DNA of 64,000 bases. It comes from Candidatus Levyibacteriota bacterium. Its GTDB lineage: Bacteria > Patescibacteriota > Microgenomatia > Levybacterales > UBA12049. Position 1 is the stretch's first letter; every line of letters begins with the position of its first letter. The stretch covers positions 57,974 through 121,973 of the forward strand of contig JACOXU010000003.1 in NCBI GenBank assembly GCA_016182185.1, in the 5' to 3' direction. A program made the position numbers and the translations under genes. The notes under the pieces were generated by a model. The model was not told the origin of the DNA and searched no databases. It saw nothing but the letters and a program-made list of their open reading frames with translations. This document shows, one piece after another, positions 578 through 61,475 of the stretch.

Positions 578-1780
578 TCATCCGCCTATTTTAAATTCTA
601 TAACATCACCGTCTTTTACTATATAGTCCTTCCCTTCAAGCCGCGCCTTTCCTTTTTCCCTCGCGCCTTTCCATCCTTCGCTTGCAACAAAATCTTCATA
701 TGAAACGACTTCTGCTTTAATAAATTTTTTCATAAAGTCTGTGTGTATAGTGCCGGAAGCAATAAGCGCGGTGGAACCGCGTCGAATGGTCCATGCTCGA
801 ATTTCTTTTTCTCCGCAAGTCAAAAAAGAAATCAAATCAAGCATCTCGTATCCTTTTTTTATTACCTTTTCAAGTCCGGATTCACCAAGCCCCAAACTTT
901 TAAGATATTCTCTTTGTTCCTCATCTGAAAGATCAGCCAATTCTGCTTCTGTTTTGGCGCAGACCGCAATAGCATCATCTGGGAATTTTTTATCTAAATC
1001 ATCTTCGGAAACATTGGCGATAAAAAATACCGGTTTTAGAGTAATAAGATTAAGATTTTTTACAGTTTCTTTTTCTTCCTCGGTTAAACCAATATTTTTT
1101 GCCAGTACCCCTTTATCTAACTGCGTTTTTAATTTTTTGATAATTTCCCAGCGCAACAAATCCTCTTTGGTTGCATTCATTCTTGGCTGCTGCTGTTTAT
1201 TTAAGGTTTCCAAATCGGCAAGAATCAGCTCAGTATCAACAGTGGTTCTGTCTTCACCGGGCTTTGGTTCTCCTGTTACATGCGTTATATTTGTATCTTT
1301 AAAATATCTTTGAACATGACAGATTAAATCTACTTCTCTTATGTGCGCCAGAAATTTATTTCCCAAACCCTCGCCCGCCGCTGCACCTTTCACCAATCCC
1401 GCAATATCGATAAATTTTACAGTTGCAGGAATGATCGGAGGCAAAACGGGTGACGCGAACGAAGGGTGCCCGAGGCGCGCATCTGCGTTCGCAGCGCTAG
1501 CAAGACTAGCAGGAGCACCTTGGGAAGAGTGAGCGGCAGGACCCTTTTCGCGAGCGGCCTCAGCGCCGATAATATATGCAAGCTTTTCCAATCTCTCATC
1601 CGGAACCGGAACAACCCCGACATTTGGTTCGATTGTCGCAAAGGGATAGTTTGCCACGAATGCAGTTTGTCTCTTAAGAAGTGCATTAAAGAGAGTGGAC
1701 TTCCCCACATTGGGAAGCCCAACAATCCCAATTGAAAGATTCACACATGAAATTATAACTAACCTAAAGTAAAGACGCAA
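578..1780 (-). CDS. ychF: ribosome-binding ATPase YchF (Obg-like GTPase) carrying an in-frame ~40-aa repeat-derived insertion
   Basis: G1 motif [28 protein letters not shown]...GLGNKFL, and a C-terminal TGS-like end ([14 protein letters not shown]). The annotated start is TTG; the true start may be the GTG at about 1738. Confidence 0.85.
1445..1564 (-). repeat. GC-rich palindromic repeat-element copy inserted in frame in ychF (encodes [14 protein letters not shown]...SFASPV)
   Basis: Local GC spike in an AT-rich gene. The 3' end TTTTCGCGAGCGGCCTCAGCGCCG matches the copies in prs, dnaX and the 61.0-kb intergenic copy. Contains the internal palindrome GCGAACG...CGTTCGC. Confidence 0.6.
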
Positions 1781-7510: not shown

Positions 7511-8395
7511 TGCAGCTGAATCACCAGGCTATTGCCCGAGGGGGTGAAATGACAACACCTAGTTCTTTCAGCCGAAACTGTCAGCGAAGCGCTCGCATCG
7601 CCGTCAAAGGGAGGTGAACCAGCGCGCAAGCGCTACTGTCGGGAGTGACTGTCTGGCGTCGGCGTGCTCAGGAACTGGCGGCAGAAGTGCCGGCAAGCCG
7701 ATCAGAGAAAAACACCCCTGCCTTTCCGCATCGCCGATGCAGGCCGTAGGTTAACGCAGTGCCCAGAACAACAGCTGCAATGATGGTCAGCTGAAGTGAC
7801 TGTGCATAACGAAGGATGTCGACGACGTCGCCGGTAATCGATGAGACGATCCAGCTGTCACGCAGGCTCGTTGGCGTCTGCGGAATCGTAGTAACTGGAG
7901 AGTCCCGAGATGAGCCGGTGATCGAAGAGTCAAGACCCACGTCATTGGTTAATGGACTATGAGCCATGCTCATGGCGCCGATGTCCGTGCAGTCGTGCGA
8001 TCCGCATGAAGCAGCCGTGTTGTCAGCAATGTCGGCGCTGTTGCGGATAGAGTCGTCCAGACCCTGACCTGACGTGAACGGGTGTAATATTCCCTGGGAC
8101 ACGTCCAGATTGACGATGGTCGCCTGAGACGAACTGGCGAGAGAGACTTCGGGACTTGCTCTGGCTTGCGGAGTCAAATGCTGACTGGGCATCAAAGCGA
8201 AGAAGCCGCAGATAGCAGCAAGTGCCACACACGCCATGAGTCCAAGAAGAGATCTCCCCTGTCGACATCTTACTGTCTCAAAGGACATAAGACCTCCTGT
8301 TACGGACCTGTCGGGATTGATATATTAAATTGTGATGAATCCGATAAACACCTCCGTATTGTGAATTTGGTGCAAATGCAAGAGTTCCCCCCGCC
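7481..8395 (-). mobile_element. GC-rich cassette-like island 1, bounded by inverted repeats AGAGGGGGGAAACTCT / AGAGTTCCCCCCGCC (putative; mobility unproven)
   Basis: Sharp GC shift (about 55-60% against about 35% in the flanks). A 12-bp inverted repeat sits at the inner boundaries. The same architecture with different cargo recurs at 23026..24281. Confidence 0.4.
7668..8288 (-). CDS. hypothetical membrane protein (cargo of island 1)
   Basis: 206-aa ORF with N-terminal and C-terminal hydrophobic helices. AGGAGGT lies 4 nt before the ATG. In GC-rich DNA long ORFs arise by chance, so coding status is uncertain. Confidence 0.4.
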   Translation of the reverse strand: MSFETVRCRQGRSLLGLMACVALAAICGFFALMPSQHLTPQARASPEVSLASSSQATIVNLDVSQGILHPFTSGQGLDDSIRNSADIADNTAASCGSHDCTDIGAMSMAHSPLTNDVGLDSSITGSSRDSPVTTIPQTPTSLRDSWIVSSITGDVVDILRYAQSLQLTIIAAVVLGTALTYGLHRRCGKAGVFFSDRLAGTSAASS

Positions 8396-22799: not shown

Positions 22800-23050
22800 T
22801 CCAAAAACAAACACCCTGCTTATTTTCAAAGGAAAAGAGAGAAGAAATAATGAAAGGTAACGATGACCAGCTTGATTCAGACGCAATTGCCTGAGTAGCA
22901 GTCAAGGAAACCTGACAAAATTTTGTGAGCCTTCTCTCCTGGTAAATGTAATGGGAATAAGTTTGCATTGGAGTCTCCTTTCGGATTAACATGGCTGTTA
23001 ATTGATCCGCCAAACGCAGAGATTTGAGAGGGGGAACTCTCACACCTGCA
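22800..23050. repeat. conserved AT-rich arm (3' side of cargo gene), copy 2; homologous to 7291..7510
   Basis: See copy 1. Ends GAGAGGGGGAACTCTCACACCTGC, immediately followed by the stop codon of the fbp-like gene. Confidence 0.6.
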
Positions 23051-24281
23051 CTAGCGGGGTTGTTGCTCCGTCTCGGGCGGAGGAGGTGAACCTGCAGGTA
23101 CAGGTTGCACCCTTGTGGTAGAAGCCGCTTCCTCATCGGATAGTGGCGTCCATCGGTCGGCGAGCTTTTTGGCAACGTCCGGCATGGTTGTGTATTCCAT
23201 CTCCTCCAAGGGAAGACGGTGGGGTTCGAATGGTCCGTGCTTACGCAGGTAGTCGGCGATATCGTTGGCCTCCTGGCGGACGTTGTCAAAACCCGGGTCG
23301 TCGAACATGTCGTTCGGGCCAATAAGCTTGCCGTTTGCAAGCTGAAATCCCAGCGACACGAGTCGCGGCGGGCCGTCGAAGCGGCTCGGGTGTGCGTCTT
23401 TCAAGCCAACAGGCATAAGCGGCCCATGGTGGGATCCGCGCATCCAGCCCTCAACTGTCCACGCAGTGGTGAACGGTTCGAGCACTTCGCCCACAGCCGG
23501 GAAATTTCCCTGACAGCGAACGATCATGGTCGGGTCGTCCTTGCCAACGTAGCGGCCGGCAATCATGGACAACTTGTCCGTGCTGGAACACGCAGCGATC
23601 TCACCGGAGTCACGATGGCGCACGCGCTTTACGGCGTAACGCTGTCCAGAACCGATGAAGACGAGCATGTCGTAGATCTCATCCGGCGCGTTAAGCGTGA
23701 CCTGCAGGTGCTCCTTGACGTCCTGGACTTCGAAGGAAAACCCTCCATGGAGTGGCGCTCCGATAACGAGCCCCGGCGTGTTGAACGGATCCGCGAACAT
23801 CTTGTAGAGCGGCAGGTTGAAAGCTCCGGCTGAGGTCTTGTCGCCCATGAAGACGATGATTGGCTCTGACGGCCGCTCGTCGATCTCCATTTCGGCCGAA
23901 CCGGGACCTGCTCCCTTGATGTTACCGCTGAATGCGTCCGTCAGAAGGTCCTGGCCTGCGCCGTAAAGCTTGAGCTTCTTGGCCAGTTCCGTACCCTTGA
24001 CAAACGTGTCCCACGCCAACTTGTGGATCTCTGTGTTGTTCTCGCCACGATCGTGAGTCATGATGAGAAACATGTCGTCTCCACAGTGGCTGACGTGACA
24101 ATCGACAAGAACTCCGGCCTGCTTTGCCTTCTCCAGCTCTTCACGACCGAGGTCGAGAATATCCGGATGAGACGAGCAGTGGCCGACCATTCCGCCGATA
24201 TCCGCTTTTATGACAGAAATTGTAACCAAAATTCCTCCTTGTTAGCTTTTGAATGGTGTAGATGTAAGAGTTCCCCCCGCC
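23026..24281 (-). mobile_element. GC-rich cassette-like island 2, bounded by the same inverted repeats as island 1 (putative; mobility unproven)
   Basis: GGGGGAACTCT at 23031..23041 and AGAGTTCCCCCC at 24267..24278. Cargo GC is about 60%. Confidence 0.4.
23051..24229 (-). CDS. fbp: fructose-1,6-bisphosphate aldolase/phosphatase (class V FBPase, archaeal-type bifunctional)
   Basis: N-terminal MVTISVIKADIGG and internal YKMFADPFNTPGLV, WMRGSHHGPLMPV, RFDGPPRL and EMEYTT are signature motifs of FBP aldolase/phosphatase. AAGGAGG lies 5 nt upstream of the ATG. Confidence 0.85.
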   Translation of the reverse strand: MVTISVIKADIGGMVGHCSSHPDILDLGREELEKAKQAGVLVDCHVSHCGDDMFLIMTHDRGENNTEIHKLAWDTFVKGTELAKKLKLYGAGQDLLTDAFSGNIKGAGPGSAEMEIDERPSEPIIVFMGDKTSAGAFNLPLYKMFADPFNTPGLVIGAPLHGGFSFEVQDVKEHLQVTLNAPDEIYDMLVFIGSGQRYAVKRVRHRDSGEIAACSSTDKLSMIAGRYVGKDDPTMIVRCQGNFPAVGEVLEPFTTAWTVEGWMRGSHHGPLMPVGLKDAHPSRFDGPPRLVSLGFQLANGKLIGPNDMFDDPGFDNVRQEANDIADYLRKHGPFEPHRLPLEEMEYTTMPDVAKKLADRWTPLSDEEAASTTRVQPVPAGSPPPPETEQQPR

Positions 24282-56295: not shown

Positions 56296-57330
56296 TCAAT
56301 TTTTTCCTAGTTCTTTTGCTATTTTTCCGCTGACTGATAATATTTCCAGTTTATCAAACCCCTTCTCTCTTGGTACATTTATTGAATCTGTAACATAAAT
56401 CTTTGAAACTTTTGAGCTCTCTAAAATGTTTTTTGCATCATTTGACAGAACTGGATGAGTTACAAAAACTAGAATTTTTTCTATGCTATTTTTTCTAAGA
56501 AGGTCTGCTGCTGCTGCAATTGTCCTGCCGGTTGAAATCATATCATCGACAATAATAGCGGTTTTAACTCCTTTTTTCCATTCTTGACCAGAAACATCTA
56601 CTCTGTTTGATTCTATATTTCCTGTCGCAAGATCTCTGTCTTTAATAATTGAGACATAAGACATATTATCAAGCATTTCTGACAATAATTTAATTCGTCT
56701 TATTCCGCCCATGTCGGGAGAGACGAGGATCGTATCGTTGATGCGCGGGGAGCTTTCAAAATTTTCATTGCGAGCATTTACGCTATCTGACTTTGGGATT
56801 TCGGATGAAACTTTTCTCGCGTTGCGAACAGGAAAATTTTCGCGAGCGACCTCAGCACTCCTCAGAATTTCTTTTATTTTCTCTGCAAAAATTGGCAGAG
56901 CAGATAGATGAACAATCGGAATAGAAAATAGTTCAGGGATTTTGACTGAATGAAGGTCAAGCGTTATAAGACGATTCATTCCAACGCTCTCAAGAGTTTC
57001 AACAATCACTTCAAGAGACACTGCCTCACCGTCTCTGAAGATATGGTCTTGTCTCTGATACCCAAGATATGGAACAACGGCAGTAACAGTTTTGGCTCCG
57101 CTTCTTTTGAGTGCATCAACTATAAAAAATAATTCCATGTAACAATCATTGGGATTTGGAGAAGTAGTTTGGATCACAACAGTATCCTCATTTATTACTT
57201 TATCAACAACTCTTACTCTTTTTTCCCCATCTGGGAAAATATCAATTTCAAGAGGAGATAAGCTGATTTTTAATTCTTTGGCAATTTTTTCTGCCAATGG
57301 CTTATTGGAGCTACCAGAAAAGATCTTCAC
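56296..57330 (-). CDS. prs: ribose-phosphate pyrophosphokinase carrying an in-frame ~40-aa repeat-derived insertion
   Basis: N-terminal Pribosyltran_N and a PRPP-binding loop (AIIVDDMISTGRTI). Insertion ...SAEVARENFPVRNARKVSSEIPKSDSVNARNENFESSPR... before the VSPDMGG motif. Confidence 0.85.
   Translation of the reverse strand: MKIFSGSSNKPLAEKIAKELKISLSPLEIDIFPDGEKRVRVVDKVINEDTVVIQTTSPNPNDCYMELFFIVDALKRSGAKTVTAVVPYLGYQRQDHIFRDGEAVSLEVIVETLESVGMNRLITLDLHSVKIPELFSIPIVHLSALPIFAEKIKEILRSAEVARENFPVRNARKVSSEIPKSDSVNARNENFESSPRINDTILVSPDMGGIRRIKLLSEMLDNMSYVSIIKDRDLATGNIESNRVDVSGQEWKKGVKTAIIVDDMISTGRTIAAAADLLRKNSIEKILVFVTHPVLSNDAKNILESSKVSKIYVTDSINVPREKGFDKLEILSVSGKIAKELGKN
56737..56860 (-). repeat. 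palindromic repeat-element copy inserted in frame in prs
   Basis: GCGCGGGGAGCTTTCAAAATTTTC...CGCGTTGCGAACAGGAAAATTTTCGCGAGCGACCTCAGC. Near-identical in sequence and position-in-frame to the dnaX copy. Confidence 0.65.
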
Positions 57331-57363
57331 AAGTTTAATTGTACTATGAAGTCCTTATTTTTT

Positions 57364-58284
57364 CTAGACAGAAGGTTGATCTGATCCTCTTTTTTTTTGA
57401 TGGTATCTCTTCACGCTCTCTGAGATTTTCTGTCTCATTTTTTTAGTCCTTCTTAAAATGCGTTTTCTTTTTTTAGAATCCGAGAAAACTAGTTGCGCTG
57501 CTTCTTTTTTTGTTCTTAAAGGAATTCCCGCTGCTTTCATCCATTTAATCACTGTGTCTATCTTAATTTCTAACTTCCCGGCAATTTCCGGCAATGACCT
57601 ATTCTTACCCCAATATTCATTGTATAGAACCTCATTTATTGGCTTTCCATATCTTCTTTCTACATCTTTTAGCTTGGTGCTTCTAATCGGCTCTGAAATT
57701 TTAATCTCTATACCGAACTTATCGCACCAATCGCCAATAACCCTATGACTCTTGCCAAGTTTCTGACCAATCTCTCTTCTGCTAAAGCCCCTTGAGGCGT
57801 AATCCAGTAAAATTTGTTCTATGGGCCTCCCATGTTTATTTTCTATCTCAGTCATCGCAGGAGTTTTTTTAATAGGCGGTCTCTCGCTTGGAATTGCCTT
57901 ATCGAGTTTTTTATATGCTTTGTCTCTAAGTTTAGCGACTGCTTCTCTTGAGATACCACCCATTTGTCTACCTATTTTTCTTAGGCTAGACGGCAATCCT
58001 TCCTCGGGATGTATTAAATTAATTACGTCTCGTTGTCTTTCTGTCAACGTGTTAATTATTCCAGTTTCTCTGGCTTGAAAGATAAGACCGTTTCTAATTG
58101 CATGCTGATCTCCGCCAAGATTTTCTCTACGTCTAACAACACCAACATCGCTATTTGGAAGACTTGAGATACTTACTCTTGATGTATCCTGACTAGATTC
58201 ATTTAAGATAACTCCACTAGGCCGAAAAGGCTTGACAGCGAATTTATGGTGCTCTAAACCTGGTTGTAATTCGTGTTTTGACAT
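57364..58284 (-). CDS. multi-HTH DNA-binding protein (sigma-70 region-4-like HTH plus two HTH_23/transposase-type HTH repeats, basic C-terminus)
   Basis: LTERQRDVINLIHPEEGLPSSLRKIGRQMGGISREAVAKLRDKAYKKL is sigma r4-like. FSRREIGQKLGKSHRVIGDWCDKFGI and RSLPEIAGKLEIKIDTVIKWMKAAGI are IS630-type HTH repeats. Confidence 0.5.
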   Translation of the reverse strand: MSKHELQPGLEHHKFAVKPFRPSGVILNESSQDTSRVSISSLPNSDVGVVRRRENLGGDQHAIRNGLIFQARETGIINTLTERQRDVINLIHPEEGLPSSLRKIGRQMGGISREAVAKLRDKAYKKLDKAIPSERPPIKKTPAMTEIENKHGRPIEQILLDYASRGFSRREIGQKLGKSHRVIGDWCDKFGIEIKISEPIRSTKLKDVERRYGKPINEVLYNEYWGKNRSLPEIAGKLEIKIDTVIKWMKAAGIPLRTKKEAAQLVFSDSKKRKRILRRTKKMRQKISESVKRYHQKKRGSDQPSV

Positions 58285-58607
58285 ATGGACTAAAAAGTCA
58301 ATGATAAGTAAATTTATTGGTCAAGAATAGGAGTATGTTAACTTTACCTAAGTTTTTTTGATTCTATTGTTGTAGTGACTAAACTTACTTGATCAATACT
58401 TGGCAAAGTTTTATTTGTCGGGTTACGGTCTGTATTTAGAGAGCGTCCAAATTGATGCTCTTCAATTAGTTTACTAAATCCATTTAAAGAGTCGTGGACC
58501 CTCCTGATCCTAGTACCTACAAGTCTACGGTCTAGTTCAAGACTTGACATATAAATACTACTAAACTAGCTTATAGTATACATCGTAGAAATTAAAAAGT
58601 CAATAGC

Positions 58608-58883
58608 TTACTGTCCTCCGCCCAACAGTCCTTGAAGACCTCCGCCCATTGATTGTAGTTTTCTGGCCGCCACCTCCTGGGATTTTTTGATTGCCTCATT
58701 TACTGCTTCTTTTATGTCGTTATCCGACCGATCATTACTGTTTAATTCCTTTATCTTCTGATCTCCCGTTATAAGAATGTCAACGCCGTTTTTTGAAACT
58801 TGAACTTCCTCTTTTTGAAGCTCTCTTTGGATTTCCATTGCCTGGTCCCGCATTTTCTTAAGATCTTTTAACTGCTGAAACAT
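58608..58883 (-). CDS. ybaB: YbaB/EbfC family nucleoid-associated protein
   Basis: MFQQLKDLKKMRDQAMEIQRELQK...GGGLQGLLGG. Immediately downstream of dnaX. Confidence 0.85.
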   Translation of the reverse strand: MFQQLKDLKKMRDQAMEIQRELQKEEVQVSKNGVDILITGDQKIKELNSNDRSDNDIKEAVNEAIKKSQEVAARKLQSMGGGLQGLLGGGQ

Positions 58884-58887
58884 AAAA

Positions 58888-60303
58888 TCACCCCCTTAAT
58901 AATACTGACATTTTAACTTTTTTTCCAGTAATTTCTTCTATAACTTTTTCAATCAATGTCCGAACCCTTACATCTTCTAACTTTTCTTTATGAAATTTGA
59001 ATTTTGCTTCAATCTCAAGTTTTTTCCCGTCAAAGTTTTTAAGAATACATCCTCTGAGAAGCCCTGCTGCAGAATGGTTGTGAGGTTTTACTTTGGCAAT
59101 AAGTTGAGCAAAAATATCTTGGCGCGGGAAGCTCACAAAATTTTCTCTGTTCGCGTTTGCGCCATCTGACTTGGGGATTTCGGGCAAATTTTTTCCCGCG
59201 TTGCGAACAGGAAAATTTTCGTGAGCGACCTCGGCGCCAATACACCACTCAACAATTGCCATTTCAAGCGGCATTTGTGGCAAAACCGCAAATTTCAGTT
59301 GAGAACTTGCCCTTACAAAGAGTTCTGTTAACTCTTTTATTTCATCTAAGCTTAATGACGCCTCTGGTTCTTTGTCCTTAACAACACCTACATTTATCAA
59401 AAGCAGTTCATGCATTTTAAGTATCAGTTGTTCGAGAAAAAATTTCATATCAATTCCCTGCTCTGTCATTTTCCCCACCATCTCAAGACTCCCTTTTACA
59501 TCTTTTTCTGTCAAAAGCCTGAACATCCCTGAAATATAAGATGATAAGTTTGAAATTTGAAATTTTTTCTCAACTATTTCCTTGGTAATTTTCCTGTTTC
59601 CGATTCCTGAATGTATTTCTTCAAGAATCTTGACTCCGTCCCTAAAGCTCCCGTCGGAAAGATCAGAAATTGCCGAAAGTGCATCCTTATCTATGGAAAT
59701 TTTTTCTTGTTTTGCGATTCTTAAGAATGAACGAATTAACTCATCCATGGTTGCTCTCTTAAAAACTATATGGAAACAGCGGGATACAATTGTCGCCGGA
59801 ACTTTATGAGGTTCAGTTGTGCAGAGAATAAACACTACATGATTTGGGGGCTCCTCAAGAGTCTTCAAAAGCGCATTGAATGCCTCAGTGGTAAGCATGT
59901 GAACTTCATCAATAATATAGATTTTTTTATGGGCTCCTGCTGGGGACAGTCTTACCTTTTCACGCAAATCCCTTATCTCATCAATTCCTCTATTTGATGC
60001 TCCATCAATCTCTAAAACATCTATATTGGTTCCATTTGTAATCGATACGCATTGAGCACATTTATTGCAGGGCTCCAAAACTGACTTTTGACTTTTGCCT
60101 TTTGACTTTTGCCTTAATTTTTCGCAATTAACTGCCTTCGCTACAATTCTTGCCGCAGATGTTTTGCCTAAGCCTTTAGGCCCAGTAAAGAGAAGCGCAT
60201 GAATCGATGATTTTTTTGCCAGAAAAGCCGTTAGCTTTTCACGAACCTCACTATTGTCGAGTTCATCTATTTTTTGAGGTCTGTATTTACGATAGAAAAC
60301 CAT
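58888..60303 (-). CDS. dnaX: DNA polymerase III subunit gamma/tau, with an in-frame repeat-derived insertion and a short tandem repeat in the Zn-finger region
   Basis: Walker A GPKGLGKTSA, DEVHML, and sensor motifs. Insertion ...GAEVAHENFPVRNAGKNLPEIPKSDGANANRENFVSFPR... Confidence 0.9.
   Translation of the reverse strand: MVFYRKYRPQKIDELDNSEVREKLTAFLAKKSSIHALLFTGPKGLGKTSAARIVAKAVNCEKLRQKSKGKSQKSVLEPCNKCAQCVSITNGTNIDVLEIDGASNRGIDEIRDLREKVRLSPAGAHKKIYIIDEVHMLTTEAFNALLKTLEEPPNHVVFILCTTEPHKVPATIVSRCFHIVFKRATMDELIRSFLRIAKQEKISIDKDALSAISDLSDGSFRDGVKILEEIHSGIGNRKITKEIVEKKFQISNLSSYISGMFRLLTEKDVKGSLEMVGKMTEQGIDMKFFLEQLILKMHELLLINVGVVKDKEPEASLSLDEIKELTELFVRASSQLKFAVLPQMPLEMAIVEWCIGAEVAHENFPVRNAGKNLPEIPKSDGANANRENFVSFPRQDIFAQLIAKVKPHNHSAAGLLRGCILKNFDGKKLEIEAKFKFHKEKLEDVRVRTLIEKVIEEITGKKVKMSVLLRG
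59113..59237 (-). repeat. palindromic repeat-element copy inserted in frame in dnaX
   Basis: GCGCGGGAAGCTCACAAAATTTTC...CGCGTTGCGAACAGGAAAATTTTCGTGAGCGACCTCGGCGCC. Confidence 0.65.
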
Positions 60304-60374
60304 ATCCTGAAAATTTCTAAATCCTAATTTCTAATTTCTAAAATTTTTTTAGATTAATTAGATTAATTGTGAAT
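60304..60374 (-). promoter_or_regulatory. AT-rich promoter repeat upstream of dnaX (tandem AATTAATCT units)
   Basis: Same flavour as 56216..56295 and 61476..61542 (TTTCTAATT..., tandem 9-10-bp units). Confidence 0.35.
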
Positions 60375-60761
60375 TTATTCATGATGTAATCCGAGCAAGT
60401 GCATTAGTCCGTGTTCAACAAGCTGATCAATTTTATCATCAACCAGCATTTCTTCTTTTGCCGCTTCTTTTATGACCTCCGGATATGAAATAACTACATC
60501 ACCCAAGAAAAGAACATCGGAATAAGAAGGTGTGGATTCTCCTTCAGTGAGCGAGAAGGACAGAACATTTCGAGTTTTATCTTCATTCTTATATTTTTTG
60601 CTCAAAGAACGCATCTTGCGATCCCCTACAATCGCAATGGAGACTTCGGCCTTCCCCGCAATGTCCTTGCTATTTAGTATTTTGGACACTAAATTTCTAA
60701 TTCTTTTTCTATCCACTTTATATCTGCTCTCAACATAAATGGGGACTGAAATTTCTGCCAT
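60375..60761 (-). CDS. ybeY: rRNA maturation RNase YbeY
   Basis: C-terminal HGLMHLLGLHHE metal-binding H-x-x-x-H...H motif. Confidence 0.85.
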   Translation of the reverse strand: MAEISVPIYVESRYKVDRKRIRNLVSKILNSKDIAGKAEVSIAIVGDRKMRSLSKKYKNEDKTRNVLSFSLTEGESTPSYSDVLFLGDVVISYPEVIKEAAKEEMLVDDKIDQLVEHGLMHLLGLHHE

Positions 60762-60764
60762 AAG

Positions 60765-60956
60765 TTATACCCAAGTCTTTTTGACTCTTCTTGCTTCTTC
60801 TTGCTTTTGCTTTCGAGCAAGTGAAGGCTTCAGATAAAACTCTCGTCTTTTTGCCTCCTGGATTATTCCTCCGGCAATAACTTTTCTTGAGAATTTTCGA
60901 ATCAAAGACTCATCACTTTCTCCCGGCATTTTTTTAACAACTACCATAATGAACAA
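60765..60956 (-). CDS. rpsU: 30S ribosomal protein S21
   Basis: Basic 55-63-aa product ...LIRKFSRKV...AKRREFYLKPS.ARKQK. matches S21. The start is probably MVVVKK. Confidence 0.75.
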   Translation of the reverse strand: MFIMVVVKKMPGESDESLIRKFSRKVIAGGIIQEAKRREFYLKPSLARKQKQEEARRVKKTWV

Positions 60957-61019
60957 ACACCCCCTTCTTAAAACAAAATTCCAAAATCTAAATCTCGAAT
61001 TCCAAATAAACTTAAATTA

Positions 61020-61145
61020 TGCTGTGCGGGGAGCTTTCAAATTTTTGGAGCACGCATTTGCGCCTTCTGAGTTTCTATTCTAAGCAAAGTTGCCCGCTCT
61101 GCGAGCGCACAAAAATTTCGGAAGCGACCTCAGCATAGCCCTATT
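61020..61145. repeat. intergenic copy of the palindromic repeat element (between rpsU and the HIT gene)
   Basis: TGCGGGGAGCTTTCAAATTTTTGG...GCGAGCGCACAAAAATTTCGGAAGCGACCTCAGC. Same termini as the prs and dnaX copies. Confidence 0.6.
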
Positions 61146-61148
61146 TTA

Positions 61149-61475
61149 CTACATTTTTACTTTTTTACCGACCGGACCGACTACATGAAAATGTAAATGG
61201 TCGATAATCTGCGCTCCCCCTCCGTTTAGTACAAGTCTATAGCCCTTATCCTTAAGCTCTGTTTTCTTTACCATTTTTTGAATAGTATTTGCCAATTTAC
61301 CAAAAAGTTTATCATTTTTAAGTTCCAAAAAATCGGTTATATGTTCCTTCGGAACTACCAAGAGATGGGTTGAGGCAATCGGATTTATATCCGAAAATAC
61401 CATTATTTCATCATCTTCATAGGTAAAATCCTTTGGAATTTCTTTCTTTGCAATTTTGCAAAAAATACAATCCAT
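61149..61475 (-). CDS. HIT (histidine triad) family protein
   Basis: MDCIFCKIAKKEIP... N-terminus and the HLHFHVVG histidine triad. Confidence 0.85.
   Translation of the reverse strand: MDCIFCKIAKKEIPKDFTYEDDEIMVFSDINPIASTHLLVVPKEHITDFLELKNDKLFGKLANTIQKMVKKTELKDKGYRLVLNGGGAQIIDHLHFHVVGPVGKKVKM

Follow-up and report, generated by a model that had tools for sequence, protein, structure and literature searches.

The ychF gene of this genome from the Levybacteria, a lineage of the candidate phyla radiation (CPR), contains an in-frame insert of about 40 codons and, to judge from the alignments, one end of that insert clearly and certainly derives from a palindromic repeat of 116 nt, typical copies of which lie within and between other genes of the window (the whole stretch of 64,000 nucleotides that was analysed). 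For the other ~85 nt of the insert, homology to the repeat is not demonstrable at the level of sequence. The reading that we favour, with a probability of about 0.55, is that the segment represents a remodelled, translated in-frame relic of a small, non-autonomous palindromic repeat resembling the Rickettsia palindromic elements (RPEs). Under this reading we infer that the whole 120 nt come from one full-length copy, along with the route of its insertion and selection on the composition of the peptide.

The insert in YchF

The product of ychF is 100% identical to P0001, annotated as ‘redox-regulated ATPase YchF, Candidatus Levybacteria bacterium’, and the identical protein is encoded in two independent Logan assemblies (SRR12113430 and SRR12113383), so that the insert is real and no assembly artefact. 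Alignment with YchF from H. influenzae (1JAL; E 4e-98) pairs residues 2–62 with 2–61 and residues 103–386 with 62–361, each uninterrupted. Because the alignment is continuous on both sides, residues 63–102 (40 residues, encoded at 1439–1558) are extra, which bears out the insert of some 40 residues that an earlier note on this DNA had proposed. The bounds are uncertain by a few bases, being 1445–1564 in the earlier note and 1439–1558 by the alignment with 1JAL, with the right end at 1567 by homology to the repeat. The host protein of 388 residues compares with 355 in most of the homologues listed, and the additional residues lie on the G domain, in one of its surface loops. The open frame of the insert suggests that it is translated. 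Within it lie a local inverted repeat and two adjacent, near-identical 9-mers (Table 1). The sequence of the 9-mers is suggestive of a possible in-frame duplication by slippage; they lie under the threshold of Tandem Repeats Finder, which detects nothing tandem within the insert.

Table 1. Position of ychF, of the features of its insert and of the typical repeat copies in the window.
Feature	Position	Strand	Description and basis
ychF (essential GTPase gene)	578..1744	minus	ORF of 388 aa starting with GTG; carries the insert
In-frame insert in ychF	1439..1567	minus	~40 codons, 67% GC, Ala/Ser/Pro/Gly-rich loop; PDB alignment and element-homologous end
Local inverted repeat	1455..1492	.	GCGAACGAAG (1455–1464) / CTGCGTTCGC (1483–1492); within the insert, 10-nt arms, 90% complementary
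Adjacent 9-mers	1497..1514	.	CTAGCAAGA and CTAGCAGGA, 8/9 identical, coding ...PAS LAS...; read from the sequence
Terminal block	1539..1567	+	GGACCCTTTTCGCGAGCGGCCTCAGCGCC, homologue of the repeat's right end; blastn, nhmmer, alignments
Typical repeat copy in prs	56743..56858	+	ORF 56296..57330, minus; in frame, +39 aa between the two Prs domains
Typical repeat copy in dnaX	59122..59237	+	ORF 58888..60303, minus; in frame, after domain III
Typical intergenic repeat copy	61024..61136	+	Spacer of S21 gene (60765..60956) and HIT-family gene (61149..61475)

The palindromic repeat family

The three typical copies of the window were located by blastn, tblastn and nhmmer, and neither nhmmer nor a covariance model finds further partial copies in the 64 kb. 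All three lie within 4.4 kb (56743–61136). Together with the ychF segment they make four window copies, all in one orientation; since most long ORFs are on the minus strand and the plus-strand GC skew is negative across the whole window, this bias could follow the direction of transcription or of replication. The prs copy appears as a clean insert of 39 residues between positions 160 and 161 of B. subtilis Prs, and the prs and dnaX copies share a reading frame, in which they encode SAEVARENFPVRNARKVSSEIPKSDSVNARNENFESSPR and GAEVAHENFPVRNAGKNLPEIPKSDGANANRENFVSFPR respectively.

A profile search of 1.84 billion representative proteins gave only four hits, three of which are real typical copies and none of which resembles the ychF insert; a word-indexed profile search added four small ORFs lying over intergenic copies, and look-ups of contigs after the profile search revealed more copies in related groundwater and metagenome contigs. 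In-frame copies occur in a folC-like Mur ligase (P0123, contig L121) and, at the same site as in the window, in a second, diverged prs (P0124, contig L122), while intergenic copies beyond the window lie on L123/L124, L141 (two) and L149. The eight distinct copies that were aligned measure 113–116 nt, with a GC content of 47–53% in the seven measured. They share a hairpin running from end to end with 34 consensus pairs, in which 95% of the cells are paired and 10 pairs vary on both sides; this covariation is reached by 0 of 500 shuffles, and slid controls show at most three double-changed pairs. For the dnaX copy the hairpin is predicted at −50 kcal/mol (z −4.5). Of the six frames of a consensus-like copy only one lacks stops, and every genic copy is read in that frame; the intergenic copy of the window has stops in all six, including the frame read in genes.

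No direct repeat indicative of a target-site duplication was found in the 30-nt flanks of nine copies (whose boundaries are uncertain by 1–2 nt), and no transposase among the 16 ORFs scanned near copies. The window yielded no tRNA genes or Rfam families, a viral scan returned nothing, and a scan of genome contigs with TTTCGNNAGCGRCCTCRGC, a pattern of too great degeneracy, gave chance matches only, in unrelated genomes.

Similarity of the ychF segment to the repeat

The significant similarity is confined to the gene-proximal end of the insert. There blastn aligns 1545–1564 with the prs copy at 19 of 20 positions, and nhmmer aligns only 1545–1576 of ychF (E 0.002–0.005), the value being 0.002 over the whole window and both strands with a profile of the other three copies. 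By a count from the alignment, 25 of 29 bases agree with the consensus across the terminal block (1539–1567). The shared terminal sequence ...TTTTCG(N)GAGCGACCTCAGCGCC is present, the element-derived end carries GGCGCTGAGGCCGCTCGCGAAAA, and the exact 24-mer terminal motif is unique in the window even when three mismatches are allowed. The match lies at the boundary of the insert and has the orientation and the frame of the family (GAE[AV]A[RH]E), a frame common to the ychF match, prs, dnaX, the folC-like gene and the second prs. Where the consensus reads GGC GCT GAG GTC GCT CNC GAA AAT, ychF has GGC GCT GAG GCC GCT CGC GAA AAG, and these first eight element codons keep seven of eight third positions by count. 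The length of the insert also agrees with that of the family (~116–117 nt), being 40 codons in ychF against 39 in prs according to the PDB alignments.

Similarity of the ychF segment to the family over the whole ~116 nt was not found. In global alignments with six typical copies its left 87 nt score z 1.2–1.6, where true copies exceed z 8, while the left 77 nt reach z ~2.5 (up to 2.6), with five to six of 500 shuffles equally good. The covariance model assigns 7.2 bits (E 8) to ychF and 101–125 bits to the three window copies from which it was partly built. A profile of nine family peptides (AEVAxENFxVxNA...ANAxxENFESSPR), run against the six-frame translation of the window, finds prs (E 1e-24) and dnaX (E 2e-22) and has no significant match in ychF, other matches having E ≥ 2.3, below inclusion; a protein search with the 41-residue insert peptide gave no candidate with enough shared words. 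When the family structure is imposed on it, the ychF segment can make 20 of 34 pairs, against 30–34 in the other copies and 10–15 in slid controls. Neither its fold energy (z +0.4 to +0.7) nor its arm-to-arm duplex energy (z −0.05 to −1.1) is better than that of shuffles, and the energy tests lend no support to compensatory GC-for-AT changes (AAGGGT/ACCCTT) by which the arms might have stayed paired.

The plus-strand fold of the insert, with an overall z of +0.74, uses the inverted repeat at 1455–1464/1483–1492. The earlier note had taken this internal palindrome for a feature kept from the element; the palindrome is present but is no retained feature of the family, since in typical copies the left arm bears TGTTCGC and the right arm, a long way off, GCGAACA, and both order and spacing differ in ychF. 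The same note was right that the terminal motif is kept and that the ychF copy is far more diverged than those in prs and dnaX. Its description of the segment as a copy of the element holds for one end, by orientation, frame and insert boundary, but does not extend to full-length homology, for which the alignment scores, the covariance model and the peptide profile give no match of note.

Base composition of the insert

The GC content of the window is 37.9%, with a peak of 0.66 in 80-nt windows at 1416–1575, and that of the 121-nt insert is 0.67, in keeping with the marked GC enrichment first noted; two GC-rich genes aside, the region of the insert is the strongest short GC island in the 64 kb. 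By codon position (1/2/3) the insert has a GC content of 0.75/0.70/0.47 and the remainder of ychF one of 0.53/0.34/0.33; for the repeat copies the figures are 0.51/0.49/0.41 (prs) and 0.59/0.44/0.56 (dnaX). The excess thus sits in positions 1 and 2 as opposed to position 3 (Fisher p 0.009), owing to the amino-acid content of the insert, which has 12 Ala, 6 Ser, 5 Pro and 3 Gly among its 40 residues. Position 3 would be lifted most if the DNA had come from a foreign, GC-rich source or if mutation or conversion were biased, and these origins are therefore disfavoured by the pattern, which ties composition to the reading frame and so argues that the insert is translated and has been shaped as a peptide. 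Neutral drift in a genome of 38% GC should lower the GC content, so that the enrichment is left without an explanation by drift; for this reason, and on account of the uneven remodelling of the segment, the proposal that it is an older insertion that has drifted does not account for the data, which do not resemble uniform ageing.

The other GC-rich islands of the 64-kb window correspond to Gly/Ala-rich protein segments or to GC-rich genes and contain no element copies. The gene for a fructose-1,6-bisphosphate aldolase/phosphatase (PF01950, E 7e-177; 23051–24229, minus strand) sits in a GC-rich stretch at 23003–24206, where 80-nt windows reach 0.60–0.69 GC in a genome of 38%, and has the look of a gene recently acquired by horizontal transfer. 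Another long stretch of high GC (7562–8288), in which 80-nt windows rise to 0.68, contains an ORF of 206 residues (7668–8288, minus strand) that has no Pfam match.

The YchF loop and its relatives

In an AlphaFold2 model of YchF (pTM 0.70, alignment of 17 sequences), residues 67–103 are predicted as coil between a helix (51–66) and a strand (107–115), and residues 70–96 have pLDDT values below 50; the element-derived GAEAARE prolongs the preceding helix in the model. Among the 120 YchF homologues listed, the insert occurs only in P0001, the protein of the window itself. The nearest relatives in the aligned subset of 17, P0004 (79% identity) and P0002 (78%), have a short linker, and the sequence at the insert site in the short-loop members of that subset is LAxI[TI]xEExKMxxLPPI or close to it. 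The earlier note had argued that a segment shared by all relatives would speak for a lineage-specific domain rather than an element; since only P0001 has the insert and its nearest relatives are short-looped, the comparison of orthologues reveals no such sharing. Its view of the region as a short conserved linker is correct as to length in most relatives, but the loop is variable and bears other inserts in other Levybacteria.

These include unrelated Ser/Ala/Pro-rich inserts of ~17–40 residues in the same loop of P0067, P0048, P0115, P0092 and P0003. The insert of P0003 (L150, 3622–3753) comprises ~130 nt and folds into an end-to-end hairpin (z −2.3), and that of P0053 (L148) comprises 69 nt with a weaker hairpin (z −1.65), so that at least one and probably two of the YchF proteins from other Levybacteria have a palindromic insert in this loop. 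The inserts of P0003, P0053 and P0067 are without relation to the 116-nt family. That of P0067 (PPSLAS...HPS...SP) was considered as a homologue of the P0001 insert and rejected, its DNA alignment being weak and heavily gapped and its 16-kb contig containing no repeat copy. The ‘IIGAE’ of P0053 could be a remnant of the same insertion, though the DNA departs right after GGTGCAGAGG and the small palindrome inserted there is another one. Inserts have landed repeatedly in the YchF loop following the beta-2 helix. At other positions of YchF, and in different lineages, P0009, P0024 and P0007 have short inserts with a recurring motif of the SASSGQ / SAGQAGSG type, which may be another small repeat family read in frame.

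Conservation of the typical copies

Orthologous copies of the repeat are well kept. Between the two prs orthologues with a copy at the same site (window 56743–56858 and L122 221–351), the element is identical at 74% of nucleotides and 85% of third codon positions, whereas the flanks are identical at 62% and 39%; the same-site copies reflect either independent insertion or selection or concerted evolution acting on the element DNA. Orthologous intergenic copies on L123 (3811–3935) and L141 (10022–10146) agree at 118 of 124 positions, while the genes beside them are 86–88% identical overall (p 0.002 relative to this overall rate of the genes) and 69–72% at third positions. A further intergenic pair, L141 13979–14104 and L149 430–555, agrees at 118 of 134 positions; in both pairs the stems are almost identical and the loop is variable. 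The third-position identity of the genes beside orthologous intergenic copies is 60–72%, and the flanking genes in the stem comparisons altogether differ at ~30–60% of third codon positions.

It is possible, though we consider it unlikely, that the stems of the repeat, between genes and in prs alike, are held by purifying selection on a structured DNA or RNA element or by concerted evolution, that the element is tolerably translated through where it lies in genes, and that the ychF copy was freed from this constraint and taken over as protein. Measured against the well-kept typical copies, the ychF copy is an outlier by its sequence, from which the constraint appears to have gone except in the first eight codons. 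Such uneven decay fits remodelling in place and a mosaic join about equally.

Origin of the ychF segment

In the favoured reading, a copy of the repeat would have landed in the permissive G-domain loop of YchF, between strand beta-3 and the helix that follows strand beta-2, and in its sole stop-free orientation and frame, so that the gene survived and the insert came to be translated as a surface loop. The copy would then have lost its hairpin, and its interior would have been reshaped by point changes, and probably by small in-frame slippage, under a selection on the peptide that favoured small, disorder-promoting residues; through this new amino-acid content the GC would have risen at codon positions 1 and 2, while the gene-proximal ~30 nt would have survived nearly unchanged. 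The searches found no intermediate or GC-rich sister copy of the ychF segment. A serious rival, though a clearly less probable one, is that the loop already had a lineage-specific low-complexity expansion and received only ~30–40 nt of the element through truncated insertion, recombination or gene conversion. The restriction of significant homology to the terminal block would be expected in that case, the same loop does bear unrelated Ser/Ala/Pro-rich inserts in other Levybacteria, and the adjacent near-identical 9-mers suggest local growth by slippage; against it, the nearest aligned relatives have a short, unexpanded loop. We prefer a remodelled full copy to such a mosaic because the length of the insert matches that of a full copy (40 codons to 39), because a weak collinear similarity extends beyond the terminal block and because 20 of the 34 hairpin pairs are residually present.

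Small families of palindromic or inverted repeats, MITEs and the ten RPE families among them, often share their ends and differ inside. The ychF segment might on that ground belong to a separate, GC-richer subfamily that resembles the typical copies at one terminus, having had its present form when it was inserted, and its arms CGCGAACGAAGGGT (left) and ACCCTTTTCGCG (right) are indeed partly complementary in the minus-strand fold. This pairing is no better than that of shuffles, however, and GC3 is not raised, contrary to what a GC-rich source would bring; moreover no second GC-rich copy was found in the 64-kb window or in ~60–70 kb of related contigs, and a scan of JGI metagenomes for the GC-type terminus CCCTTTTCGNNAGCGRCCTCRGC returned 14 chance hits, pattern-only matches that all lie in contigs of 50–68% GC, which makes the subfamily improbable. 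Coincidence is disfavoured further still. An ordinary lineage-specific low-complexity loop could in principle give a match of 20–30 nt by chance, the match being short and Ala codons being GC-rich and prone to strings of the GCNGC type, and part of the motif might be native since ‘IIGAE’ is also present in the YchF of P0053; but the window-wide E of 0.002 is reached before the placement in a 120-nt insert, the boundary, the orientation and the frame are counted, identity extends to seven of the eight third codon positions, and the P0053 DNA shares only the short string after which it departs. Least credible of all is that the insert is missing from the mature protein through splicing, translational hopping or protein splicing. 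Ribosomes are known to bypass GC-rich mobile inserts in an AT-rich yeast mitochondrial genome, which offers a precedent. Yet every genic copy here is free of stops in the frame of its host, in contrast to the intergenic window copy, all six frames of which contain stops; the inserts add whole numbers of codons, Rfam gives no intron or ribozyme match in the window, and 40 residues are far under the size of an intein.

Relation to known repeats

RPEs are palindromic repeats of ~150 bp that lie in frame in unrelated genes, encode conserved peptides and occupy structurally tolerated sites (Ogata et al., 2000, Science 290:347, cited through the review PMC10969869). The Levybacteria family is likewise a short (~100–150 bp), multi-copy palindromic repeat found in frame in unrelated housekeeping genes, with an open frame encoding a conserved hydrophilic peptide, at loop or linker sites compatible with the fold, and with intergenic and degenerate copies besides. 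It is the typical copies, in prs, dnaX, P0123 and P0124, that place an in-frame palindromic repeat in several unrelated ORFs, ychF being a degenerate case. The family differs from RPEs in its host, since Levybacteria are a free-living or episymbiotic CPR lineage and not Rickettsia, in its low copy number (four in 64 kb, and eight distinct typical copies across all loci) and in that, where copies occupy orthologous sites, their stems are better conserved than the third positions of the genes next to them. In behaviour it is closest to RPEs, to which we liken it as an analogue. By this analogy the ychF insert would be what is left of a worn element of the ‘selfish DNA in genes’ type known from Rickettsia and no new kind of system.

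A likeness to bacterial MITEs, including the intragenic ERIC, BOX and Correia-type elements (PMC10969869), lies in the non-autonomous nature of the repeat, its long hairpin and its intergenic, occasionally genic, position; as in MITEs, there are terminal inverted repeats, which in the typical copies pair end to end. Unlike MITEs, the repeat shows no visible target-site duplication at any copy, and no parent transposase was found near the copies. The missing duplication would fit, by analogy, a mobilisation based on single-strand hairpins. REP and REPIN sequences are conserved palindromic repeats too, though the resemblance goes no further, REPs being 20–40 nt long and extragenic. Literature searches returned no report of RPE-like elements in CPR/Patescibacteria.

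The ychF copy would offer a worked example of the later fate of such an insert, the hairpin having been lost and the segment reshaped into an Ala/Ser/Pro/Gly-rich coil of low model confidence. For annotation, elements of this kind may account for unusual loops of high GC and low complexity in CPR proteins that are conserved elsewhere. The degenerate ychF copy is in itself of modest interest, and the repeat family with the conservation of its stems provides the stronger lead. Among the carriers of the repeat, the Hainich groundwater contig L121 (2787–7653), on which the folC-like copy lies, also encodes neighbouring cohesin-domain and dockerin-domain proteins, which are not expected in a CPR-like contig.
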